A stretch of 64,000 nt of DNA. Source: Candidatus Latescibacterota bacterium. Its GTDB lineage: Bacteria > Latescibacterota > UBA2968 > UBA8231. The notes below the pieces were generated by a model that saw only the letters and a program-made list of their open reading frames with translations, had not been told where the DNA came from and did not search any database. This document shows positions 1,951-64,000 of the stretch, in pieces. Made by a program: the position numbers and the translations under genes. How positions within the stretch are numbered: the stretch's first letter is position 1; each line of letters starts with the position of its first letter. The stretch is from the NCBI GenBank assembly GCA_965243025.1, contig CBDETY010000003.1:1856001-1920000 (forward strand), in the 5' to 3' direction.

Positions 1951-3240
1951 CTACTGCAACCCGTCGGCGTTCTCGGCCACCTTGCGGAAGGCGTCTGCGT
2001 ACTGGTCGATGACCCGGGGCTCGTAGCGCTTGAACCAGGGAATCGAATAGCAGCGCCCCTCGATCGATTCCGTAATCGGCAGGCTGCCGGCCGGTTGCCT
2101 GAGGTCCCGTTCACTGTGGGCGATCCGCGTCGGCTTCCCGTGACCGTAGATGTCGGCTTCGTTAAGCACCGGGTGGAGATGCATCGCCGGCACCCCCGCC
2201 CCGGGCCGGACCTGAAAGCCGCCGGCAGAGATCTCGGCGTTCACGGCTTCGCAGAAGCGGAGAAGCGGCAGCCCCTTCAGTTCATCCGCCCGGTACAGTC
2301 CCCGCGCCGAGTAAAAGCCACCCATGACGCTGCCGCTGTCCCGCGGGGGCAAATGCGGACGCAGCCCCCGAACCCCCTCCAGCCGGTCCCAGAAGTGGTA
2401 CATCGCCTTGCGTATCTCCTCCAGCCGGCCTCGGTATCGGCGCAGCTGAACGCGTCCGACCGCGGACGAGAGCTGGTGGATCCGGTGCTTGCAGCCGCCA
2501 AGGGGATACCCGGCGAACCGGGCAAGCTCCGGATCGGAAAGGGTGCGGGAACGGGCGTAATGGCCAAAGGCCAGGGCGCGGTTGAAGATCTTCTCCTGAG
2601 CGGTGACCAGGAATCCTCCCTCGCCCGAAACCAGGGACTTCCCGGACATGATCGACATCGCCCCGACGTCGCCGATGGTTCCGAGCAGCCTGCCCTTGTA
2701 CTCCCCCCCCTGGGCGTGCGACACGTCCTCGATGACCTTGAGCCCGTGCTTTGCAGCGATCCCCATGATCGCATCCATTTCGCTGGGGTAGCTGCTGAGG
2801 TGAACGGCGACGATTGCCCGCGTGCGTGGGGTGATCCGGTGTTCGATGTCGGCAGGATCGATGGTCAGGGTCTGAGGATCGACCTCGGCGAAGACGACGG
2901 TGGCTCCAAGTGAAAAGACCTGCAGCACCGATCCCCAGTAGGTCAGGCTCTGGCATATCACCTCGTCGCCAACCCCCACCCCGCAGCCGTACAGGGCCCC
3001 CTGGATCGCCGCGGTTCCGGTGTTGTGGCAGAGGACATGGGGGAGGCCGAACCACTCCCCCAGCTCCTTCTCGAACTCCAGGGTGACGTCGAAGTCGGAC
3101 ATGGCGCCGCGGCGGAGGACGTCGAGAACCGCTTCCTCGTCCTCCCCCGTGATGACCGGCCACCGGAACAGGTCGCCGGGGTCTCCGGCAAGGGCGGGTT
3201 CTCCACCGAAAAGAGCGAGGTCGCTACGGCTTGCGCTCAT
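1951..3240 (-). CDS. DegT/DnrJ/EryC1/StrS family PLP-dependent aminotransferase
   Basis: NTGTAA, GVGVGDEVI, IEDVSHAQG, PLP-lysine motif SIMSGKSLVSGEGG. Confidence 0.92.
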   Translation of the reverse strand: MSASRSDLALFGGEPALAGDPGDLFRWPVITGEDEEAVLDVLRRGAMSDFDVTLEFEKELGEWFGLPHVLCHNTGTAAIQGALYGCGVGVGDEVICQSLTYWGSVLQVFSLGATVVFAEVDPQTLTIDPADIEHRITPRTRAIVAVHLSSYPSEMDAIMGIAAKHGLKVIEDVSHAQGGEYKGRLLGTIGDVGAMSIMSGKSLVSGEGGFLVTAQEKIFNRALAFGHYARSRTLSDPELARFAGYPLGGCKHRIHQLSSAVGRVQLRRYRGRLEEIRKAMYHFWDRLEGVRGLRPHLPPRDSGSVMGGFYSARGLYRADELKGLPLLRFCEAVNAEISAGGFQVRPGAGVPAMHLHPVLNEADIYGHGKPTRIAHSERDLRQPAGSLPITESIEGRCYSIPWFKRYEPRVIDQYADAFRKVAENADGLQ

Positions 3241-4206
3241 TCAGGAGCCGGCGGCGAGCCGCTTCTCCAGCTGCCGGTCCGTGGGCATGCGGTCATACTC
3301 CCAGACATGCATGACCACCCCGTCTTCGATCCAGGCAAGGCGCGGCCAGCCGTGGCCCGCGGTGAGCCGCATCCAGTCCGAAGACGAGATCGTCGCTATG
3401 TCGAAGCGGGGCCTCATCTGTCCTACGAACTCCTTGAGCTCGGGCGAGTCCTGGGCGTATTCGTTGAGGCCGATGAGACGCGGAAACCGGCCGGAGGCCG
3501 CCCAGCGGTTGAGCTTGGGCACCGCCTTCTTACAGCGTGAACATTTCGGGTTGAACAGCTCAATGAGATAGCTTCCCGAACCCAGGTCGACGTCGACTCC
3601 CTTGAGCTCCAGTCCCTGCAGGGCCATTCCCGGCTTCAGGTCGGAACCTGCGAGCCGGTCGGCCTGGGGATAGAAGCGCATTCCGGTGACGGCCAGGGCG
3701 ACGAGGGTCCCGACGCCGGCGATAACCGGGGCGCGGGCAAGTCCGGGGCGCGGCCATCGCAGGTTCCCCCGCCACCACCCGAGCAGCAGCAGCCCCAGCA
3801 TCACTGTGTCCTCGGCCGCGGCCTGGCCGGGAGAGCGCTCCGCCAAAGCGCCGAAGCATCCGCAATCGACGTTGGCTCCGGTCCGCCAGGCGTAAAAGGT
3901 CAGCCCCAGGAAAATGGCCATCAGTCCCACCGCCACCGGATAGACAAACCGCTGCTTCCAGTTGAGCAGCAGCGCCAGTCCGACCGCGACCTCGACCGGG
4001 GCCAGGTAGATGGCCAGGGAGCCGAGATTGTGCCAGGCCTGGCGGTCTACGGCGAGCATATCGAGATAGGAGACCACCTCCCAGTAGAAGATGACGGGGT
4101 CCCAGGATTTGGCGGCGCCGGCGGTGAGGAACACCAGTCCCATCGCCAGCCGCGCCAGCCCGGCGAACTTGGAGAGCAGTGAAGCCTCGAGAGGAACCGT
4201 CGTCAT
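3241..4206 (-). CDS. DoxX/MauE family membrane protein fused to a thioredoxin-like domain
   Basis: TM helices with AGAAK and DCGCFG; C-terminal FNPKCSRC (CxxC) and WPRL (cis-Pro position). Start at 4206 is my choice and is uncertain. Confidence 0.8.
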   Translation of the reverse strand: MTTVPLEASLLSKFAGLARLAMGLVFLTAGAAKSWDPVIFYWEVVSYLDMLAVDRQAWHNLGSLAIYLAPVEVAVGLALLLNWKQRFVYPVAVGLMAIFLGLTFYAWRTGANVDCGCFGALAERSPGQAAAEDTVMLGLLLLGWWRGNLRWPRPGLARAPVIAGVGTLVALAVTGMRFYPQADRLAGSDLKPGMALQGLELKGVDVDLGSGSYLIELFNPKCSRCKKAVPKLNRWAASGRFPRLIGLNEYAQDSPELKEFVGQMRPRFDIATISSSDWMRLTAGHGWPRLAWIEDGVVMHVWEYDRMPTDRQLEKRLAAGS

Positions 4207-6157: not shown

Positions 6158-7300
6158 TCAGGCCGTTTTGTTGCGCAGAATGGCCGGGTAGTCGAAATCG
6201 CGATTCGTTTGACTATCCTCTTCGGCGCCCTCGCTCGAAGCCTGTGGAAATCCCCCGAACTCCGGCTGAATTGTCTCCAGGGTGCGTTGCGGCCCCCGGG
6301 GAACCTGCTTCTCTTCGAGGTTGTCGTAACGGCCCGCCCTTTTGTTGAGATAAAAACCGGTTGCAATGACGGTGACACGCATTTCATCCACAAGGTCCTC
6401 ATCGATTACCGTTCCGAAGATGATGTTGGCCTCATGTCCGGCGGATTCCTGGATTATCGAGGCAGCTTCATTAGCCTCGTAGAGAGTGAGGTTCGAGCTG
6501 GAGGTAATGTTGATCAGGGCTCCTCTGGCCCCCTCGATGGAGACGTCCTCGAGCAGGGGACTGCTGATCGCTTTCTTCGCCGCTTCGAGAGAGCGGTTCT
6601 CTCCCTTGTGCGAGCCGACCCCGATCATGGCGTCGCCCCCTTCGGTGATGACCGTCTTCACGTCGTTGAAATCGAGGTTTATCATGCCGGGAATGGTGAT
6701 GAGGTCGGAGATGCCCCGGGTGGCCTGCAACAGCACTTCGTCGGCGCGAAAAAACGCCTCGTCGAGCGAGGTTTCGCGCGAACAGATCGAAAGCAGGCGC
6801 TGGTTCTTTATCACTATCAACGTATCGACGTGCTCCTGCATCTCGGAGATCCCGACCCGCGCATTGCTCATGCGGTGCCTCCCCTCGAACTGGAACGGCT
6901 CCGTGACGATACCCACGGTCAATGCGCCCTGCTCCTTGGCGAGTTCGGCAACTACGGGAGCCGCCCCGGTTCCGGTTCCGCCTCCCATGCCGGCGGTTAT
7001 GAATACGAGATCCGTATCGCTGAGATGTTGGACGACCATGTCGCGGTCCTCTTCGATCGCCTGCCGTCCCGTCTCCGGTTTGGCGCCGGCGCCGAGTCCG
7101 CGAGTGATGGAGTCCCCGATGATGAGGCAGTGGTCGGCTTTCGAGACATCCAGATCCTGGCTGTCGGTGTTGATGGCGACGAATTCCACGCCGTGGACTC
7201 CCGCCTCAACCATGCGGTTGATGGCGTTGCCCCCCGCCCCTCCTACGCCTACCACCTTGATTTTCGCCTTCTGATCGAAATCGATGATCTTGAACGTCAT
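6158..7300 (-). CDS. ftsZ: Cell division GTPase FtsZ
   Basis: VGVGGAGGNA, GMGGGTGTGAAP, C-terminal DYPAILR; GGAGG RBS before ATG 7300. Confidence 0.98.
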   Translation of the reverse strand: MTFKIIDFDQKAKIKVVGVGGAGGNAINRMVEAGVHGVEFVAINTDSQDLDVSKADHCLIIGDSITRGLGAGAKPETGRQAIEEDRDMVVQHLSDTDLVFITAGMGGGTGTGAAPVVAELAKEQGALTVGIVTEPFQFEGRHRMSNARVGISEMQEHVDTLIVIKNQRLLSICSRETSLDEAFFRADEVLLQATRGISDLITIPGMINLDFNDVKTVITEGGDAMIGVGSHKGENRSLEAAKKAISSPLLEDVSIEGARGALINITSSSNLTLYEANEAASIIQESAGHEANIIFGTVIDEDLVDEMRVTVIATGFYLNKRAGRYDNLEEKQVPRGPQRTLETIQPEFGGFPQASSEGAEEDSQTNRDFDYPAILRNKTA

Positions 7301-7386
7301 TTCATCCTCCTTTGAAGGACTGTGAGGGAGGCTGTCGCTGGCGACTTCCCCCTTCGGTTGATTTTCCATTCTTCGATATTCGCCTT

Positions 7387-8625
7387 CTACAGAAACGTCG
7401 CTATCCAATTCTTCATGCGGCCGGCAGCTGCCCCGAACACTCCGGATCCCGTCCCTTCCGGGTGCTGGCTGAAACCACAGCTGTCGGCGTCGGCCGCCAT
7501 CAACACCAGCCCCAGCACGGCGGCATAGCAAGGGTTCGCAAGGCGCTCGCCGACGCCGGGAAACGCCGCGGGAACTCCCAGCCTCACCGGAATCCCGATC
7601 GACCGTTCGGCGAGCTCAACCGCTCCTTCAACGAGCGACCCTCCTCCAGTCAGCACGATTCCCGCGCCAAGGCGATCGCCGTACCCGCTGTCGTCGATCT
7701 CGCGCCGGACCATGGCGAAGATCTCTTTCATGCGCGCCTCGATGATGGTCGCGAGATCCCTTTTCGCTACCTCCACCGGTTTCCGTCCGCCCACTCCCTT
7801 CAGTTGGACGACGTCGTTCTTGTCGGCGCACTCCGCCAGAGCCATTCCGTAACGGCACTTCATGTCCTCCGCCAGGGGCCAACTGGTGCGCAGGCAGATC
7901 GCAATGTCGCTCGTGGCGTTCTGTCCCCCGACGCCGACCACCGAGGTACGCCGGACGGAACCATCGGAATGGATCGCAAGGTCGGTTGTACTGCCTCCAA
8001 TATCGACGACGCAGACCCCCACATCCTTCTCTTCCTGGCGCAATACCGCCCGGCTGGATGCCAACGGTTCGACGACGATGCCATCCACCTCCATCTCCGT
8101 TCGCTCGATGTTCCTGCTGATGTTTCGCACCGAGGTGGCGGCGCCCGTGACGATATGCACCGACGATTCCAGGCGAACCCCCGTCATACCGACGGGATCG
8201 CGGATGCCAGCCTGGTCGTCGATTGAGAATTCCTGAGGAAGCACGTGAAGCACCTCGCGGTCGAACGGAATCGCCACGGTCCTGGCAGCCTCCACGACCC
8301 GGTCTCGATCCTCTTGTGTGACTTCGGGCCCGCCGTCGCCCACGGCGATGGAGCCCCGGCTGTCGAAACCGCGAATGTGTTCACCCGAGATGCTTGCAAG
8401 CACTGCCTCGATTTCAATACCTGCCATCAATTCGGCCTGGTGCACGGCCCCCCTTACCGCCTGCACAGTCTTTTCCGCGTCGACGACAGCGCCCCTGCGC
8501 AAGCCATCGGAAGATCTGTGCCCGTACCCGATGATCTCGATGCCTTCCGCTCCGAGCTCCGCGATTGCAACGCAGATTTTCGTCGTCCCGAGATCCAGTC
8601 CAACCACCGTGTCCCCGCGGCGCAT
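7387..8625 (-). CDS. ftsA: Cell division protein FtsA
   Basis: GLDLGTTKIC, VDIGGSTTD, GIVLTGGGS, C-terminal amphipathic helix. Confidence 0.97.
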   Translation of the reverse strand: MRRGDTVVGLDLGTTKICVAIAELGAEGIEIIGYGHRSSDGLRRGAVVDAEKTVQAVRGAVHQAELMAGIEIEAVLASISGEHIRGFDSRGSIAVGDGGPEVTQEDRDRVVEAARTVAIPFDREVLHVLPQEFSIDDQAGIRDPVGMTGVRLESSVHIVTGAATSVRNISRNIERTEMEVDGIVVEPLASSRAVLRQEEKDVGVCVVDIGGSTTDLAIHSDGSVRRTSVVGVGGQNATSDIAICLRTSWPLAEDMKCRYGMALAECADKNDVVQLKGVGGRKPVEVAKRDLATIIEARMKEIFAMVRREIDDSGYGDRLGAGIVLTGGGSLVEGAVELAERSIGIPVRLGVPAAFPGVGERLANPCYAAVLGLVLMAADADSCGFSQHPEGTGSGVFGAAAGRMKNWIATFL

Positions 8626-8628
8626 CGC

Positions 8629-9489
8629 TCAACCTCCCCTCTGTCGACGGCCCCTGGCAGCCGAGACCAGACGCGACCCGACGACGACCTGACCCTCGTA
8701 ACGCAGGTCGACGTACGCGGGGGGGGAACTCCTCTTTCCGTAAATCCGATTCATCATTCCCTTCAGGAGCCCCATGTGCCTGGCGGCCTCGGTTGCGGGT
8801 ACCCTCACCTCGAGCCCGTCAGCCACCATCTGCAGTGCCAGTGCCCCGTCCGACAACGGCTCGATGGTGGAAATATTCCGGCTGAAGGCGCTGTCGCCGT
8901 GCACGGCTTCCGTCAGCCAACCCAGAACCGCGAAGAGAGAGGAATCGGGGATCACATCCCCCGACTGCAGCGAGTCCCAGCCGGGGCCTTCGCACCGGAT
9001 CACTGGAAGGTCGATATCGGCGATCCGCTCTCGCGGCAAGGGAGCGGGGGGCAGGACTATTCCCTCGGCATCCACTCCGAAGGGGTCACCGCCGGCGTCG
9101 AGCCAGGCCAGGCGCCGCCGCTCTTCGACGGCGATGTAGATGCGATCGGGAGGACGCACGTGAGCGTGCGCCCTTCGGACCCATGGCAGCTCCTCGAGCC
9201 TGCCGGCCAGGGAATCGAGGTCGACGGCGAAGATGTGGTCTCCCGCCCGCAGTCCGCTGGCGGCAAGAATGTCCGCTCCCGAGAGGGCGCTGAGTCCGCG
9301 GACCTCGAGCGCGGCGAGCGGCAAGCTCCTCGATTGGTAGAACTCGACGCCGACCCATGCCGCGGCGCTGGCGACGACCGCAGCGATGGCGGCGGTGAGC
9401 AGCCTGCGGCCGCGCCTGCGGCTCCCCTTGCGGTGCGGATAAACCTCCCCGGCTCTCACCATTCGCCGGGGCCGTGAGCGGAACGTCAC
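8629..9489 (-). CDS. ftsQ: Cell division protein FtsQ/DivIB
   Basis: Basic N-terminus, one TM, POTRA (LPWVRRAH...PDRIYIAVEER), YVDLRY; position in dcw cluster. Confidence 0.9.
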   Translation of the reverse strand: MTFRSRPRRMVRAGEVYPHRKGSRRRGRRLLTAAIAAVVASAAAWVGVEFYQSRSLPLAALEVRGLSALSGADILAASGLRAGDHIFAVDLDSLAGRLEELPWVRRAHAHVRPPDRIYIAVEERRRLAWLDAGGDPFGVDAEGIVLPPAPLPRERIADIDLPVIRCEGPGWDSLQSGDVIPDSSLFAVLGWLTEAVHGDSAFSRNISTIEPLSDGALALQMVADGLEVRVPATEAARHMGLLKGMMNRIYGKRSSPPAYVDLRYEGQVVVGSRLVSAARGRRQRGG

Positions 9490-56806: not shown

Positions 56807-57955
56807 ATGGGGACGGGCAGCATCCTCTGCCGGGGCTGCGAAGCCGATTTCGGGTTCGCAGCCCCCTTCCACCGCTGCCCCGGGTGCGGGGGGCCGCTCT
56901 CCTTTTCCCTGGACCGCTCCTTCCCGCTCGCCGGGATCGCCGCGCGACCGCCCGGCATGTGGCGCTACCGCGAGGCCCTTCCGGCTTTCGAGGAGGCGGT
57001 CTCACTCGGGGAGCAGCCGACCCCCCTGGTTGCGGCCGCCCCCCGGGAGTTCGGGAGGGAGGGGGTGCTGTTCAAGTGCGAGTACGCCCTTCCCACAGGG
57101 TCCTACAAGGACCGCGGCGCCGCCACCCTGGTCAGCTACCTGAAATCGACGGGCGTGACCGAAGCCGTAGAGGACTCGTCGGGGAACGCCGGGGCCTCGA
57201 TGGCGGCGTACTGCGCCCGCGCCGGTATCGGCCTGAAGGTATTCTGCCCGCAGTCCGCCTCGGCGGGAAAGCTGACGCAGATCCTGCTTTACGGGGCCGG
57301 GCTGGTGCGCGTGCCCGGGCCGCGGCCCCGGGCTACCGAGGCGCTCCTCGAGCACGTGGAGGCCGCCGGCAGCGCCTACGCCTCCCACCTCTGGCACCCC
57401 CTTTTCCTCGAGGGCATCCGCACCATGGCGTACGAGACCGCCGAACAGCTCGGCTGGTCGGCGCCCGACTACGTCCTCTGCCCGGTCGGTGCCGGAAGCA
57501 TCCTGCTTGGGCTGTTCGACGGTTTTTCCGACCTGCTCGCCGCCGGCGTCGTCAAGCGGCTGCCGCGGCTGGTCGCGGTGCAGGCGGCCAACGTCGCCGC
57601 GGTCTGCGCGGCCGTGCGCAGCGGCGCCGGGCATGTGGAGCCGGTGCTTGCCCCGCAGCCCACCCTGGCGGAGGGAATCGCCCTGCCGGCTCCGGTCCGG
57701 GACCGCGAGGTACTGCACGCGATCCGCGCCTCCGGGGGGACGGCCGTCGCCGTAGGGGAGGAGGAGATCGCAGCCGGAGCGGAGGCCCTCGGCAGGGCCG
57801 GTTTCTGCGTCGAACCGACCTCCGCGGTCGTCCGGCAAGGGCTGCGGAAGCTTATCGAAAGCGATTCCCCTCCTCCCCCCGGCGCCACCGTCGTCGCGGT
57901 GCTGTCGGGGCACGGCCTCAAGGCCTCCCCCGCCCTGGCGGAAATCCTCGGCTGA
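56807..57955 (+). CDS. Threonine synthase-like PLP enzyme
   Basis: N-terminal CxxC...CPxC, PTGSYKDRG, DSSGNAG, EPTSA. Confidence 0.88.
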   Translation: MGTGSILCRGCEADFGFAAPFHRCPGCGGPLSFSLDRSFPLAGIAARPPGMWRYREALPAFEEAVSLGEQPTPLVAAAPREFGREGVLFKCEYALPTGSYKDRGAATLVSYLKSTGVTEAVEDSSGNAGASMAAYCARAGIGLKVFCPQSASAGKLTQILLYGAGLVRVPGPRPRATEALLEHVEAAGSAYASHLWHPLFLEGIRTMAYETAEQLGWSAPDYVLCPVGAGSILLGLFDGFSDLLAAGVVKRLPRLVAVQAANVAAVCAAVRSGAGHVEPVLAPQPTLAEGIALPAPVRDREVLHAIRASGGTAVAVGEEEIAAGAEALGRAGFCVEPTSAVVRQGLRKLIESDSPPPPGATVVAVLSGHGLKASPALAEILG

Positions 57956-57970
57956 ACGGCGGAAGACCCG

Positions 57971-59467
57971 TCAGCTCCGGGCTTTCAGCTCTTTCAGCCG
58001 CTGCGCCTCTTCCGAGTTCCTGTAGTAATCGTCGAGGGGGAAACAGCCGCTGACCATGCCGTTGCGCGGGGCGGTGGTGCAATCGCTGAAGGTGCGGCAG
58101 ATCCGCTTGCGGGCCAGCTCTCCCCCGCCGTAGAGCAGATCGTGCGGCAGGTCGGGGTACGACAACACCATGCGGCCCAGGCCAACGAAATCGACCGCCC
58201 CCGAACGCACCGCGGCCTGGGCGACGTGGGGCAGGAACTCCTGCAGGTAGCTGTACCCCGATCCGACGAACACCCGGTCCGGGAACGAGCTCTTCAGCCG
58301 GGCGGCCCCGGCGATCTGCCTCGCCACCCCGGCGAGCGGGTCCTCGGGCGGCTGGTACCCGTCGGACGGCGGAAACAGCGCCGGGCGCTGGATGTGGGGG
58401 TTGTAGTAGGGGCTTCCGCAGGTGAGGTTGACGAGGTCGACCCCCCACTCCCCGAGGGCGGCGATGAAGCGGCGGGGCTCGTCGAGGTCGATTTCCAGCG
58501 GATCGTCCGGGTCGATCCCGAACCCGTACTGGTAGGGCAGAAGCGCTTCGAAGGACTCGGGAACGCCGGTTCCGGGTTTGCCTCCCTCCCCGTCCGGACC
58601 GGGTCGGAACGGCACGAAGTCATAGGAACTGAGGCGCACTCCCACTTGTAGTTGCGGCGCCTCGCTCCGGATTCCCTCGACGATCTCGCGGCAGAAGCGG
58701 GTGCGGTTCTCGAAAGAGCCGCCGAACCTGCCGGGGCGGGTGCGGGCGCTCAGCAGCTCGTGGCCGAGATAGCCGTGGCAGTGCTTGACGTCGACGAAGT
58801 GAAACCCGGCGTCGCGGGCGATGCAGGCCGCCTCGACGTAGAGCTCGATCAGCTGTTGCAGGTAGTCGTCGGTGACCGGCGGGTGGCCGGGGTCGAGGCC
58901 GAACCTGCGGTCGAGAATCGGGTGCCTGTAGGCGATGCAGGGCTCCATCCGGTCCTTGCGGAAGGGCCGGCAGAAGCGGCCGGAATGGGTCAGCTGGAGG
59001 CCGGCCACGAGGTCGTCGGCCGAGCCGAAGCGTTCCCCGTGGGCGGCGGTCAGGATCTCCCTGAGCTCCCGCACTCCGTCCCGGGTCGAGGCGCAGGCCA
59101 TCAGCTGGTTGGGGTTTGCCCTCCCCTCCGGACAGACGGCGAACGCCTCGCCCCCCCAGATCAGCTTGGCCCCGCTGCGCCCGAAGTTTCGCCAGCGCCG
59201 GCGCACGTTGTCGGTGGGCATGCCGTCAGCGGACCCGTCCCACCCCTCCATCGGCTGGATGGCGAAGCGGTTGCCCGCCCGCCTGTCGCCGATGGCGCAC
59301 GGCTGTGCCAAGGGCGATTCGGGCGCCTGCAGCGGAGTTTCGTCGCAGGGGAGCGAGGCCCCGATGGCTTCGAGGTGAGCGCGGAAGTCGGCGGCCTGCT
59401 TGAAGGCGGACACCCGCGGATGGCGGTCCCGGCGGCGCGGGGGCCTTCCCGAACCGGCCTCAGCCAC
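57971..59467 (-). CDS. NADH:flavin oxidoreductase (Old Yellow Enzyme family)
   Basis: [35 protein letters not shown]. Confidence 0.92.
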
Positions 59468-60242
59468 CGGGCCTTCCGGAATCCCCGGACATCCGACCGG
59501 ACCTGGGCAGGTAGATGACCCCGGCGATTCCCACGGCCACCAGGGCCAGGCTGATCAGCTGGGCCCCGGTCAGGCCCCATGCCACGACCGGGTTCAGGCG
59601 GATGAACTCCACTGCGAAGCGGGCGCAGCCGCTGAGAACCAGGTAGAGGGAAAACGAAGTCCCGGGAACCGCAAGGCGCCTCCGGGTCGACCAGAGGATG
59701 CCGAAGATCGCCAGTCCCATCAGGGTTTCGTACACCGGGGCGGGGTGGACTTTTTCGAGGGTAGGGACGACTCCCTTCGGGTACGCCATGCCCCAGGGGA
59801 GGTCGGTCGGCACGCCGTAGTCCCCGTCGCCCGCCAGCTGGCAGCCGATTCTGCCTATGGCGTAGCCGATCGCCAGGCCGATGCCGACGGCGTCGGCCAC
59901 CTCGGGCAGGGGCGCGCCGCGGCGGCGCACCAGCCAGACGACCGCGGCCGTCGCCAGGAACAACCCGCCGTGCCAGGTCAGGCCGCTTCCGGAGAACACG
60001 GCGCCGAGGGATTCGCTCCAGGTGACTCCCGGGGGAAGCTCGAAGAGGATGAAGTAGAGCTTGGCCCCGGCGAGGCCGGCGAGGATCCCCGCAGTGAGGA
60101 TGGAGGAGGCCAGCTCGGGGTCCAATCCCTTGCGGCGCAGTTCCTTCTGGATGAAGAAATGGCCGGCGAGGAACCCGAGCACGACCATGGGGCCGAAGGT
60201 GGGCAGCCTGAAGCCGCCGATTTCCAGCCAGTAGGGGTACAT
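59460..60242 (-). CDS. lgt: Prolipoprotein diacylglyceryl transferase
   Basis: WHGG, GRIGC..GDGDYG, LPWG, HP..VYE, RF.VEFIR. Confidence 0.92.
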
Positions 60243-63200
60243 CAGTTCGTTGCCTCGGCGGACCCGGCTTCCCCGCCGTCCCCGGCGAGGCGGGCGATTT
60301 CGCGCCGCACCTGCCCCGTGACCTCCCTGTAGACCTCGTAGTTTCCCAGGCGCTCGCGCCGCGCGGCGTACGGCGCCATCTCGACCGGAGGGCCGAAGTT
60401 CAGGCTCACCCGGTTGCGCCGGGGAAAGCGGCCGTTTTTCGGCAGCGCCTCCCGGGTCCCGGCGACGTGCACGGGAACGATCGGCAGGTCGAGCTCGATC
60501 GCCAGCAGACCCACCCCTGTCCTGAACGGTTGCAGAGCCCCGCTCGAGGACCTGGTTCCCTCGGGAAATACCAGCAGCGGCCGCCGCACCCCGATGAGGC
60601 GGCGCAGTGCCAGCAGGCTTTCGAGAAACTCCTCCTGCCGGTCGAAGGGCACGGCGTCGAGCATGGTTCGCAGGAACCAGCTAAGCGAAGGGGACCTCGA
60701 GAGGTAGTCCCTGGCCGCGGCGAGACTGATCCGGTCGATTCGGGGCCTTATCGCCAGCAGGATGGACGGGGCGTCGAGATGGCTCGTGTGGTTGGCGGCG
60801 ATCACGTAGGGGCGGTCCGGGGGAAGGTGCTCCAGTCCCCTTGCCTTCAGCGAGAAATAGAGACGGTACAAACCCCCGCCGGCGGTCCAGAACGTTTTCC
60901 GCAGTATGCCGGAACCCCCATCGGCCCGCAGCTGATGCCCCCTGTTCCCGTCCTGTCCCCGCAGGGCACGTGTCCAGTACCCGCCCCCGTCCCCGGGAGA
61001 GGGGATCCTCTTTTCAGAGGCGACGAACAGGGGCTCCAGTTTGTCCACGAGACTGCGCAGCGTCGGGCTGCGAAGGATCTCCCGGGAAAGCGGACGGCCG
61101 AGAGTTTCCCCGACGATCCCGGCGAACTCCACCGACATCAGCGAGTCGAGCAGGCTGTCGAGGGGGGCGTCGCCGTGGGCGAGAACTTCGGCCGGCGTCA
61201 GTCCCGTTATCCTGCTCAACAGGTCGTAGACCGACCTCTCCCAGGGGGCCAGGCTCTCGTCGATCTCGACCTCGGCCCCCTGCAGCTCGTGCTGCAGGTC
61301 GGCCAGCACCCGGGGCCGGTCGACCTCGCCGGCGCAGTTGCGCGGAAGGGGCCCGCTGCGCACGTGCAGGCGCTGAATGCGCTGGTAGGTCGGAAGGTTG
61401 CGCGAAATCCCGTACGCCGCCTCCCTCGCGCGGGCGGCCGCCGCATCCCCGGCTCCCTCGGCCAGCACGGCCACGCCGTGAGCCTCCTCGCTCAGAGTTC
61501 GCGGCGATCTCACCCCGACGACGCTCAGCTCCGCCACCTCCGGCAGACCCCGGTACAGCCCTTCCACTTCATCGGGGTAGACGTTTTTGCCGGCGCCGGT
61601 GACGATCAGGTCCTTGCAGCGGCCGGTGATGAACAGGTACCCCTCGTCGTCGACCCAGCCGATGTCCCCGCTGTGGAGCCAGCCGTTTCTCAGGACCGCG
61701 GCGGTCAGTCCGGGGCTGTCGAGGTACCCCGGCATGACGTTGGGTCCACGCACGAGGATCTCGCCGCAGCCGCGGGGGTCAGGCTCGTCAATGCGCAGAT
61801 CGACGCCGGGCAGAGGGATTCCGACCGACCCCGGCCTGGCCTTTCCCGGAGGGTTGACGGTGACGATCGGGGAAGTCTCCGTGAGGCCGTACCCCTCGTA
61901 CACGGTAACCCCCATGCGGCGGTAGCTCTCGAAGATCCCCGGTGCCAGGGGGGCGCCGCCGCTGACGACGAGCTTGAGCCTGGAGATCGGGGCGGCGCTG
62001 TCGCGGTCGAGGGCGTGGCGCTCCTCCTCCCCGTGCCTGCCGAGGCGCTCGATGCGGTCTGCGAGGATCTTCAGCAGCCGGGGCACCGCCAACAGCGCAT
62101 TCGTGCCGGTCTCCCGCATGGTCTCGAGGATCACCCGGCTGTTCAGGGTCTCGAGGTAGGTGACGGTCGCCCCGCTCAGGAGCGACATCAGCAGCGAGCC
62201 GGTGAACTCCAGGCCGTGGTGCAGGGGAAGCAGCGAGAGGACGCGGTCCCCCCGGTCGAGGCGCTGAACCTCGGCGATGGCGAGCAGGTTCGAGAGGAAA
62301 TTCCCATGCGTGAGGACAACTCCCCTGGGCTCGACCGCGGTGCCGGCGGTGAAGATGATCGACGCCTCCATCCCGGGACTGACGCCAGGCGGTTGGAGGT
62401 GCTCACGAGGAGGGGGCTCGGCTGCGGCTTCGCCTCCCGGCAGCGGGAACATCCGGCCGTCGAGATCGAAGAAGGCAAGCGGCCGCCCGGAGGTCCCGGC
62501 GGCAGCTCTTTCGGAGCCGAGAGTCTCGAAGCTGGCGCGCGAGGCGACCAGTCCACGGGCCCTGGTGAACGCCGCCAGCTTCCACACCTCCCCCGGGGGG
62601 GTCTGGGGGTCGACGGGAACCACCGCCAGTCCGGCGACCGAGGCCCCCATGTAGGCGATCACCCACTCGGGGCTGTTTCCCCCGTACAGCAGCACCCGGT
62701 CCCCGGCCTCGAGCCCGCAGCGCTGCCACAGGTCCGCCCGGGCTTCGGCGCGCGCCAACAGCTCTCCGTAGGACACTCTCACCCAGGAATCGCCCCGCTT
62801 CATCTGCAGCGCCGTGATCTCCCCGTAGCGGGCGCAGGACCAGCGCAGCAGATCGGGGATCGTCTGCAGCTCCTCCTCCTGCTGCCAGCGCTCCTCTTCC
62901 GAGCCTACCTCCGCGGGGGGCTCGCGGAAGATCTCCTCCTCCCCGGCGTCCCCCAGGACGTGCCGCCTGAGCCCGGGCAGATGGACGTCGCCGATGTAGC
63001 GATCCCAGTCGATGCGCTCGACGTCCATGTTGAAAACCTGCCGTTCGCCTGCCGGGAGACTGGCGTGGAGGGCGCGGGCGCGGTCGGTGGAAAAGCTGCA
63101 CTCCAGGTGGGTGTACGGATGGTAGATGTCGGCGTAGTACAGCACCCTCTGCAGCCGGATCTTCATCGTCGACAGGAGCCGGCGTTTCTGCGGAGATGCC

Positions 63201-64000
63201 CAGTTCCATCCGGATGGCAGGCGCTTCAGGAGCCAGGAGTGGAGCGTCAGCGGCAGCGAGTACTTGAGCCGGAACTTCAGCCGGAAGGAGCGGATGCCCG
63301 GGTAGGTCCACTTCGCCAGGTCCGGGGCGCGGCCGTCGCGCCCGAGGAGCGGGTTGGCGCCGAAGTAGGCCACCAGGCTTTCGTAGAGCTGGGAAATCCG
63401 CACCGGGTTGCGGCTCGCCGTTGCCGCGTGGTAGACCTGCACCTCTCCGGGGGAGGCCCGGGTCGCGGCGGCCAGGGTTGTGTTGACGACGACGTCGACC
63501 GGGACGATGTCGAGGGCGAGATCCGGCCGCGCCGGGAAATCGGGCAGCATTCCCTTCCCGTACGCCGCCACCAGGGGATCCATCACCTTGAGACCGGTGA
63601 TCCACCCCGGCTCGGGATCCTCGAGAGAGCTCTCGATGATGCTCGGCCGCACGATGACGAGCGCCTGGCCGTCGCGGTTCCCGACCAGCAGCTGCTCCCC
63701 CATCGCCTTGGTGAAGGTGTAGACGTCGTTCCAGCCGTTCTTCCTGGCCCGCCGCATCCCCTCGTCGACGAGGCGGCGCTCGATCCAGTTCCTGGTGCGG
63801 TCCTCGGTGAGCTTCCCGAGCCGGCTCTTCGACAGCGGCCTGCTGCGGTGCTGCCGCAGGATGGCGCGCTCGAACTCGCGCCGGCGCGCCTCTCCCCGGC
63901 CCTCCTCGTACACCCCCCTGCAGAACGCCTCGCAGTCGGCGATTTCGCGCTCGGGATCGAACCGCGCCGACGCCGCACCCGGATTCGCCAGCTGGCGGAT
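60242..64000 (-). CDS. ElbD-like multidomain lipid enzyme: fatty acyl reductase + AMP-binding + ACP + acyltransferase (5' end beyond the window)
   Basis: YTFTKAMGE/IVRPSII/DIVPVD (FAR), YEGYGLTET/GWLHSGD/GAGKNVYP (ANL), LDSLMSVEF (ACP), NHTSHLD/FPEGTRS (LPLAT); frame stays open to 64000. Confidence 0.9.
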   Translation of the reverse strand: MRQLANPGAASARFDPEREIADCEAFCRGVYEEGRGEARRREFERAILRQHRSRPLSKSRLGKLTEDRTRNWIERRLVDEGMRRARKNGWNDVYTFTKAMGEQLLVGNRDGQALVIVRPSIIESSLEDPEPGWITGLKVMDPLVAAYGKGMLPDFPARPDLALDIVPVDVVVNTTLAAATRASPGEVQVYHAATASRNPVRISQLYESLVAYFGANPLLGRDGRAPDLAKWTYPGIRSFRLKFRLKYSLPLTLHSWLLKRLPSGWNWASPQKRRLLSTMKIRLQRVLYYADIYHPYTHLECSFSTDRARALHASLPAGERQVFNMDVERIDWDRYIGDVHLPGLRRHVLGDAGEEEIFREPPAEVGSEEERWQQEEELQTIPDLLRWSCARYGEITALQMKRGDSWVRVSYGELLARAEARADLWQRCGLEAGDRVLLYGGNSPEWVIAYMGASVAGLAVVPVDPQTPPGEVWKLAAFTRARGLVASRASFETLGSERAAAGTSGRPLAFFDLDGRMFPLPGGEAAAEPPPREHLQPPGVSPGMEASIIFTAGTAVEPRGVVLTHGNFLSNLLAIAEVQRLDRGDRVLSLLPLHHGLEFTGSLLMSLLSGATVTYLETLNSRVILETMRETGTNALLAVPRLLKILADRIERLGRHGEEERHALDRDSAAPISRLKLVVSGGAPLAPGIFESYRRMGVTVYEGYGLTETSPIVTVNPPGKARPGSVGIPLPGVDLRIDEPDPRGCGEILVRGPNVMPGYLDSPGLTAAVLRNGWLHSGDIGWVDDEGYLFITGRCKDLIVTGAGKNVYPDEVEGLYRGLPEVAELSVVGVRSPRTLSEEAHGVAVLAEGAGDAAAARAREAAYGISRNLPTYQRIQRLHVRSGPLPRNCAGEVDRPRVLADLQHELQGAEVEIDESLAPWERSVYDLLSRITGLTPAEVLAHGDAPLDSLLDSLMSVEFAGIVGETLGRPLSREILRSPTLRSLVDKLEPLFVASEKRIPSPGDGGGYWTRALRGQDGNRGHQLRADGGSGILRKTFWTAGGGLYRLYFSLKARGLEHLPPDRPYVIAANHTSHLDAPSILLAIRPRIDRISLAAARDYLSRSPSLSWFLRTMLDAVPFDRQEEFLESLLALRRLIGVRRPLLVFPEGTRSSSGALQPFRTGVGLLAIELDLPIVPVHVAGTREALPKNGRFPRRNRVSLNFGPPVEMAPYAARRERLGNYEVYREVTGQVRREIARLAGDGGEAGSAEATN

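Follow-up and report, generated by a model that had tools for sequence, protein, structure and literature searches.

A family-specific operon of Latescibacterota that groups an ElbD-type lipid enzyme, a divergent and apparently housekeeping lgt, and a predicted ene-reductase

In Myxococcus xanthus, ElbD carries fatty acyl reductase (FAR)-like, acyl-CoA-synthetase-like, acyl carrier protein (ACP) and AGPAT-like parts in one polypeptide (Lorenzen et al. 2014, as summarised in the available part of PMC9131029). ElbD belongs to the elbA-E operon and has an inferred role in the synthesis of alkyl ether lipids; the steps by which this bacterial route leads from a fatty acid to an alkyl ether lipid are given in the same excerpt as still unknown. 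Myxococcus also has MXAN_1676-1674, a set corresponding to the peroxisomal route that consists of AGPS, a FAR-GNPAT fusion and a reductase (PMC9131029, available part). In Latescibacterota, a 'standalone elbD' has already been reported from sponge metagenome-assembled genomes (MAGs) (bioRxiv 10.64898/2026.06.23.733905, available text). Here we describe an ElbD-type gene at the end of a 64,000-nucleotide stretch of a Latescibacterota genome (the window; G000:C3:1856001-1920000). According to the list of open reading frames (ORFs) and Pfam, positions 57971-64000 are occupied by three minus-strand ORFs, which encode an ElbD-type multidomain enzyme, the prolipoprotein diacylglyceryl transferase Lgt and a flavoprotein of the OYE family. 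The genome of the window is termed G000, its family f1 and the sister families f2-f4.

With moderate confidence, we read this locus as an f1-specific operon in which an ether-lipid or fatty-alcohol gene and an ene-reductase gene are co-transcribed with the housekeeping lgt. The operon would have been assembled from three genes, each single-copy and conserved across the class, and the placement of lgt would provide co-expression with envelope-lipid genes, not dedicated chemistry. An initial annotation of the sequence had gone further and proposed a pathway in which lipoproteins receive an ether-linked anchor; dedicated ether-anchoring of lipoproteins is unsupported. The close packing of the genes that it described was borne out by direct reading. 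The ElbD stop and the lgt start have one base in common (aacTGATGtac, in which TGA and ATG overlap by 1 nt), and lgt overlaps the OYE gene by 8 nt (GTGGCTGA). The GTG at 59467 is the sole in-frame start of the OYE gene upstream of the stretch conserved among its orthologs. The operon consists of exactly three genes and is bounded by a convergent PALP-family gene on one side and a divergent lipid kinase gene on the other.

The Pfam domains of the large protein follow the order NAD_binding_4 and Sterile (together the FAR part), AMP-binding, PP-binding and Acyltransferase. This is the order of Myxococcus ElbD as described in the available part of PMC9131029, a likeness established by description and not by sequence, and the part that ElbD is inferred to play in making alkyl ether lipids would be common to both. 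The initial annotation had read FAR, adenylation, ACP and PlsC-type domains in one frame and matched them to ElbD, and Pfam searches of both the window ORF and the full 1434-aa ORF gave the same picture. In the window-truncated protein (P0001), FAR matches are confined to residues 75-174 and 283-350. The FAR domain is complete in the full ORF (NAD_binding_4, 202.8 bits), the start of which lies at G000:C3:1920546, 546 bases past the window end. The stretches NHTSHLD and FPEGTRS, which we take to be PlsC-type acyltransferase motifs, are visible in the acyltransferase part of the translation. A 1462-aa ORF in a Binataceae genome is colinear with the protein over residues 7-1422 at 33% identity, and by tblastn the parts of the window protein are 49-58% identical per domain to their counterparts at the other loci where FAR, lgt and OYE genes form a trio. 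As judged from these comparisons, the ElbD reading of the large protein is sound.

The surroundings of the gene differ from those in Myxococcus. Unlike in the elbA-E operon, lgt and the OYE gene come after the ElbD-type gene. The initial annotation had suggested a search for elbB/C/E-like partners upstream; in the recovered upstream sequence none adjoins the gene, and DagK and Mla genes are found instead. On both flanks, no HAD-type ElbB, ElbC, NAD-epimerase ElbA or ElbE stands next to the ElbD-type gene, and a genome-wide search for elb partners returned four Lar_N matches, none of them near it. An elb-like cluster around Lar_N was considered and rejected: two of the matches are near acyl-CoA-ligase genes, but their neighbours encode PfkB, a sulfatase, an acyl-CoA dehydrogenase and a short-chain dehydrogenase. 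The 'standalone elbD' of the preprint (10.64898/2026.06.23.733905, available text) is probably the same gene family from the same kind of organism, and several trio loci bear sponge-MAG-style labels with the names Latescibacterota or Gemmatimonadota. However, the preprint terms its elbD standalone, whereas here lgt and the OYE gene adjoin it, and the words 'Lgt', 'lipoprotein', 'flavin' and 'oxidoreductase' do not occur in its main text as available.

The distribution of the trio was followed in two surveys. The first was built on the Lgt of the operon, which belongs to a subfamily, here called Cys-type, with the core motif G-R-x-G-C-x-L-x-G-D-G-x-Y-G. When one genome per species was scanned with motif-based seeds, the seeding patterns matched in at least 529 species genomes, and the best 80 of these at least 529 loci (L010-L089), on which the tblastn results rest, were kept. 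OYE lies directly downstream of lgt in 23 of the 80, and the remaining 57 have neither FAR nor OYE. FAR lies directly upstream of lgt in 21 of the 23 OYE-linked loci, the other two ending at a contig edge. The trio loci range in GC from 39% to 72%. Many of them also share a neighbourhood of PALP, ilvD, amidohydrolase, DagK and MlaD genes, and the trio is kept where the flanks differ (L016, L033). For the second survey, one set of 151 genomes of the phylum was searched with PF01790, the OYE protein and the FAR domain. A GC3-based gene caller, prone to misplacing starts and at times to losing the lgt ORF, served only for choosing ORFs for Pfam. In f1, lgt and OYE are side by side in 53 of 64 genomes, G000 included. 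Among the 11 f1 genomes in which this adjacency is not listed, four (G048, G066, G123, G154) have FAR and OYE 3.4-3.5 kb apart, as the trio predicts, with the place of lgt missing from the listing; four (G082, G081, G121, G144) are fragmentary or gave no matches; and three (G118, G050, G061) are natural variants considered below. The sister families comprise 51 genomes, both places being listed in 49. They always carry a standalone FAR gene (41-46% identity) and one copy of the OYE gene (59-63% identity), and in 49 of 49 the FAR, lgt and OYE genes are hundreds of kb apart or on different contigs. Among the genomes surveyed, the trio is confined to one family, f1. The elbD-lgt-OYE synteny for which the initial annotation had asked is kept within the family and absent from its sisters.

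Variants within f1 show which parts can be separated. In 16 f1 genomes, the ORF upstream of lgt is a FAR-only protein of 541-596 aa. Among the 23 trio loci, FAR-only genes occur in L010, L028, L029 and L033, and L018 has FAR and the ligase only. No ElbD-type ligase-ACP-acyltransferase was found elsewhere in three FAR-only genomes (G083, G065, G152), just generic ligases of about 30% identity. In G118 (85% complete), FAR (718-2322) is followed by OYE (2420-3865) without an lgt between them, and the only LGT match, 28% identical by tblastn, is of the canonical type and on another contig. The full ElbD of G061 (genus g3) has neither lgt nor OYE behind it, its downstream neighbours being cupin, GFO/IDH and PALP genes; at 1e-30, no OYE orthologue was found in G061 or G050, and both have canonical-type Lgt only. 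These arrangements indicate that FAR is the conserved core, that the other ElbD domains are accessory, that lgt is replaceable and that ElbD can exist without both partners. In this the locus differs from Myxococcus ElbD, the ligase-ACP-acyltransferase part being dispensable within f1. By retaining only part of the set, natural ElbD variants of this kind help to define the requirements of an alkyl ether lipid route.

G000 itself has two LGT genes by Pfam search of the genome, the operon copy and a canonical copy, and a canonical second copy is also present in eight other f1 genomes (G111, G115, G125, G126, G137, G143, G149, G152). However, both genomes of the same genus, G084 (one contig) and G093, have no second lgt, the operon copy being their sole LGT match. 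With PF01790, a single match was obtained in 49 f1 genomes; 12 others had at least two, and 3 had none. Of the 53 genomes with lgt-OYE adjacency, 42, many of them single-contig, have no LGT match besides the operon lgt. Adjacency to OYE was counted because Lgt type could not be called from the Pfam bit score alone: the 146.7 bits of the G118 protein looked Cys-type, yet this was a partial match to a canonical enzyme. Cys-type Lgt is also the sole LGT protein in genomes that lack the trio, namely in G012 of a sister family (FGRGGCELSGDGCYG, 45% identical to the operon Lgt) and in the source genomes of two loci, L089 with the label Bacteroidota and L057 with the label actinobacterium. Judged by gene presence, Cys-type Lgt would suffice as the only Lgt of a genome, being the sole LGT in the 42 f1 genomes and in G012, G004 and G005. 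Within the class, Cys-type and canonical Lgt alternate by genus and occur together in few genomes only. Genus g19 is Cys-type only (G012 by sequence, the rest inferred from scores), and genera g20, g22-g25 and g27 are canonical only by score. This either/or distribution suggests that the two types are interchangeable housekeeping enzymes. On gene content, the operon lgt is read as the lineage's ordinary, and usually only, Lgt and not a dedicated extra copy. A special paralogue dedicated to ether anchors, as the initial annotation implied, does not fit a gene whose orthologue is the one LGT that most relatives have; the possibility it had itself raised, that this is the only, housekeeping lgt, fails for G000 with its two genes and holds for 42 of the 53 f1 genomes with lgt-OYE adjacency.

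The sequence of the operon Lgt is nonetheless divergent. It matches Pfam LGT over its full length (157.6 bits against a cut-off of 24.9; residues 3-244 on profile positions 1-240) and falls under the cut-off of all seven NCBIfam Lgt models (TIGR00544, 90.8 against 118.9). With E. coli Lgt (PDB 5AZB/5AZC) it shares the catalytic network: in an alignment whose E. coli chain numbering is one ahead of that in PMC4728403, R143, E202, R239, E243 and R246, to which that paper assigns catalytic network roles in its available part, are kept as R131, E172, R208, E212 and R215. The glycines of the signature motif are also retained. Against the E. coli signature G142RLGNFINGELWG154, however, N146 is replaced by C134, N149 by A137 and E151 by D139; outside it, Y26 is replaced by F16, and Y235 by S. 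The kept catalytic residues and the substitutions are both invariant across 27 close homologues. According to the available part of PMC4728403, Y26 is in contact with the donor lipid at its sn-2 ester oxygen, and Y26F, Y235S and E151A/Q are inactive in the E. coli enzyme, E151D not being among the mutants tested. The substitutions alone would suggest a changed function; the phyletic data say otherwise. Loci with Cys-type Lgt bear labels of Latescibacterota, Gemmatimonadota, Binatia, Bacteroidota, Ignavibacteriota, Chlorobiota, Actinomycetota and others. A quick maximum-likelihood tree unites the 25 operon-linked Lgts (from 23 loci, G000 and G083; L120 was too short and excluded) in one clade with SH-aLRT 84. 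The clade lies within the Cys-type Lgts, whose grouping roughly follows phylum, and two canonical copies sit on a long branch. The widespread Cys-type Lgt is of interest in its own right, as the sole Lgt of many genomes in several phyla despite substitutions that inactivate E. coli Lgt (Y26F, Y235S). Lgt is an antibiotic target, and 'essential' residues serve to define its family; the Cys-type would offer a testable case of active-site rewiring. An unusual expansion of the wider family occurs in G001, the genome behind L051 (labelled Binatia), which has 13 LGT-family matches in 5.5 Mb.

Apart from the ElbD-type gene, G000 carries further ether-lipid genes, in keeping with the initial annotation. 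Among them is a true homologue of AGPS (E 2.4e-146 to the mammalian enzyme, PDB 4bby), which seems to share an operon with genes for a HAD hydrolase and a protein of 492 aa. In the sister families, the standalone FAR gene directly precedes a conserved protein of about 650 aa, a copy of which is also present in G000, and in G063 an AGPS-like gene comes right after this protein. The protein has no Pfam match even at E 0.01. An Atlas look-up placed it with acyltransferase clusters (score 0.92, about 100 of 256 features in common), a weak lead, and it is a candidate bacterial dihydroxyacetone phosphate (DHAP) acyltransferase, that is, a GNPAT analogue. These parts recall the MXAN_1676-1674 route as outlined in the available part of PMC9131029, since G000 likewise has an AGPS homologue and the sister families pair FAR with the 650-aa protein. 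Unlike in that cluster, the genes of G000 are scattered: FAR lies within ElbD at 1.92 Mb, AGPS and the HAD hydrolase are at C3:3.18 Mb, and the 650-aa gene is at 4.77 Mb. With an AGPS homologue and a peroxisomal-like route at hand, neither Lgt nor OYE is needed as an ether-forming enzyme; the FAR core, the dispensable ligase, ACP and acyltransferase, and the co-occurring AGPS together point to an AGPS route and not to a new ether-forming enzyme.

From its domains, the ElbD-type enzyme would activate a fatty acid with its ligase domain and load it onto its own carrier domain. The FAR domain would then reduce the loaded fatty acid to a fatty aldehyde or alcohol, and the PlsC-type domain would acylate a glycerol or DHAP backbone. 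The fatty alcohol would most likely feed the AGPS homologue elsewhere in the genome, which would make the ether bond. The lgt product would be an ordinary, if divergent, prolipoprotein diacylglyceryl transferase of the Cys-type, lipidating lipobox cysteines from phosphatidylglycerol. If alkyl-acyl phosphatidylglycerol is present in the pool, Lgt might pass it to lipoproteins, passively. An enal or enoyl intermediate of the substrate or product of FAR may, at a guess, be saturated by the OYE protein.

The OYE protein is a predicted FMN ene-reductase-like enzyme. It matches Pfam Oxidored_FMN (PF00724) with 82.3 bits over profile positions 2-230 of 342, and its fold model is a TIM barrel (pLDDT 85, pTM 0.89). 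The best Foldseek matches of the model are TsER, YqjM and XenA (E about 1e-22, TM about 0.75-0.81 on the target). The His pair of OYE proteins is presumably the substrate-binding pair, and the Tyr of HGY presumably the proton donor. The K-H-C-H-G-Y of the window protein aligns with H-A-A-H-G-Y of 3krz. The Tyr and the second His of the pair are kept; in place of the first there is Lys, adjacent to another His, and the flavin-side Cys aligns with Glu. By fold model and alignment, the TIM-barrel fold and the HGY Tyr are common to the window protein and the thermophilic-like OYEs (YqjM, TsER, XenA). Compared with these, the window protein is about 140 aa longer, with insertions at about 285-330 and 350-375, and has a C-terminal tail with three invariant Cys. 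It belongs to a family of proteins of about 490 aa with at least 8000 matches at E<=1e-20, which are named only generically and among which no characterised member was found. The orthologue is single-copy across the class, and its neighbours outside f1 are mreBC, hemD, 2-hydroxyacid dehydrogenase or Fic genes, all non-lipid contexts. The sole lipid link of the OYE gene is its position next to FAR in f1.

Several observations weigh against an ordinary role for the operon Lgt. The spacing within the trio is <=55 nt or overlapping in at least 15 f1 genera, and the trio persists through gain or loss of the ligase-ACP-acyltransferase part. Such persistence goes beyond what neutrality needs and would be compatible with a functional tie of Lgt to FAR and OYE. 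The canonical second lgt would allow a division of labour in G000. Y26F, E151D and Y235S sit where E. coli Lgt is intolerant of change; with Y26, E151, Y235 and N146 altered, donor or acceptor handling in Cys-type Lgt could differ. Furthermore, the 'only LGT match' counts come from Pfam searches, and the genomes searched are 73-98% complete.

A different explanation, which we consider unlikely, is neutral synteny: the three genes would have no functional or regulatory relation, having been joined once in the family ancestor and never separated. All three orthologues are scattered in the 49 sister-family genomes, and OYE adjoins mreBC, hemD or 2-hydroxyacid dehydrogenase genes outside f1. Moreover, the flanking PALP, ilvD, amidohydrolase, DagK and MlaD genes are themselves kept among many trio loci, and a conserved wider neighbourhood is what general synteny by descent would produce. 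The E. coli lgt, which sits in an operon with thyA, would be an analogy. However, neutrality does not readily account for FAR and OYE still being adjacent in G118 after loss of lgt from between them, for the survival of the trio through changed flanks and the full range of GC, or for the translational coupling of its genes at overlapping junctions.

The pathway of the initial annotation, in which alkyl-glycerol lipids come from ElbD, lipoproteins receive an ether-linked (alkyl-acyl-glyceryl) anchor specifically from this Lgt, and OYE acts as the reductase of an unsaturated intermediate, is decidedly improbable. Parts of it stood: the ElbD domain order, the ether-lipid genes of G000, and an operon that is tight and conserved in 53 of 64 f1 genomes. 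The donor-contact residues of Lgt are also altered, with Y26 changed to F at the sn-2 ester contact (PMC4728403, available part). The dedicated lgt paralogue did not stand, and nothing marks the operon Lgt as an extra copy. Cys-type Lgt is the sole Lgt of G012, unlinked there to FAR or OYE, and loci labelled Bacteroidota and Actinomycetota have it with no ElbD or OYE nearby. Conversely, the f1 members G118, G061 and G050 use canonical Lgt instead, and ElbD exists without a Cys-type Lgt (G061). A search of the available papers found none that combines ElbD with a diacylglyceryl transferase, and the matches listed for Lgt with ether lipids concern archaea or Bacillus acetylation, none of them bacterial ether-linked anchors. 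A restated form of the idea would have f1 couple lipoprotein lipidation to ether-lipid synthesis: Cys-type Lgt would prefer alkyl-acyl-phosphatidylglycerol made by FAR/ElbD and AGPS, lipoproteins would carry thioether-linked alkyl-acyl-glyceryl anchors, and OYE would tailor the alkyl chain. Persistence, translational coupling and the donor-contact differences are the reasons for keeping such a coupling in view at all, as a long shot. If true, an ether-linked chain would be shown in a bacterial lipoprotein anchor for the first time; a dedicated pathway would be striking, and on present evidence it is unlikely.

That the Lgt homologue is itself the ether-bond enzyme, with a FAR-made fatty alcohol attacking C3 of the diacylglyceryl group of phosphatidylglycerol to give 1,2-diacyl-3-O-alkylglycerol, is highly implausible and was dropped: the minimal conserved unit is FAR-Lgt-OYE without ligase, ACP or acyltransferase, the acceptor-side residues differ from those of E. 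coli Lgt, and the ether-forming step of the Myxococcus ElbD route is given as unknown in the available part of PMC9131029, but the operon gene is the only LGT-family gene in most f1 genomes and must therefore serve lipoproteins, a true AGPS is present in G000, and G118 keeps FAR-OYE with a canonical Lgt elsewhere.

Coordinates of the operon, its domains and related genes (window positions unless a locus or contig is given).
Feature	Coordinates	Strand	Remarks
ElbD-type multidomain enzyme	60242..>64000	-	C-terminal 1252 of 1434 aa inside window
Complete ElbD-type gene	L009:3243-7547	-	1434 aa; 182 aa beyond window
FAR part (NAD_binding_4 C-terminal half + Sterile)	62950..64000	-	Pfam; N-terminal Rossmann part outside window
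Acyl-AMP ligase (AMP-binding) domain	61721..62845	-	PF00501, 241.3 bits; P0001 residues 386-760
Carrier-protein (PP-binding) domain	61043..61231	-	PF00550, 21.5 bits (cut-off 20.8); P0001 residues 924-986
PlsC-type acyltransferase domain	60467..60847	-	PF01553, 81.9 bits; P0001 residues 1052-1178
lgt, Cys-type subfamily, 260 aa	59460..60242	-	Pfam LGT, alignment
OYE-family flavoprotein, 498 aa, GTG start	57971..59467	-	Pfam Oxidored_FMN, fold model
PALP-family gene, convergent, outside operon	56807..57955	+	Pfam; closes operon
Second lgt, canonical, 270 aa	C3:3625157-3625888 = L001:1456-2268	-	227 bits, motif RLGNFFNSE
AGPS homologue group	L126:4442-6283, 6639-7340, 7402-8880 (G000:C3, about 3.178-3.183 Mb)	-	AGPS, HAD hydrolase, 492-aa protein without Pfam match
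Protein of about 650 aa, FAR partner	L102:3994-6033 (-), L105:3943-5883 (-), L108:4163-6112 (-), L110:7655-9652 (+)		Sister families
Own copy of the about 650-aa protein	L127:4859-6826	+	44% identical; at 4.77 Mb in G000

Downstream of the operon, ilvD precedes the convergent PALP gene. On the other side, shortly beyond the end of the window, genes for a DagK/YegS-type lipid kinase and then for MlaD, MlaE and MlaF run divergently from the ElbD-type gene. The kinase gene lies at L009:8015-8938 (+), and the Mla genes continue to about 14263, the MlaE protein having a STAS domain. L012 and L020 likewise have a DagK-MlaD pair upstream of ElbD, and in L012 and L015 MlaD occurs with ABC_trans_aux. 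DAG kinases adjoin elbD in some clades, according to the available text of bioRxiv 10.64898/2026.06.23.733905.

Other genes accompany the trio at individual loci. A short-chain dehydrogenase of about 243 aa follows OYE on the same strand in four of them (L023:5611-6342, L027:7490-8239, L029:4125-4856 and L033:4642-5370, all +). A PIG-L family gene lies one or two genes downstream of OYE in L011 and L012, and a methyltransferase gene in L010. MmeI-type restriction-modification genes, probably unrelated insertions, are located a few kb downstream of the trio at L020:12350-15163 and L023:7947-10619.

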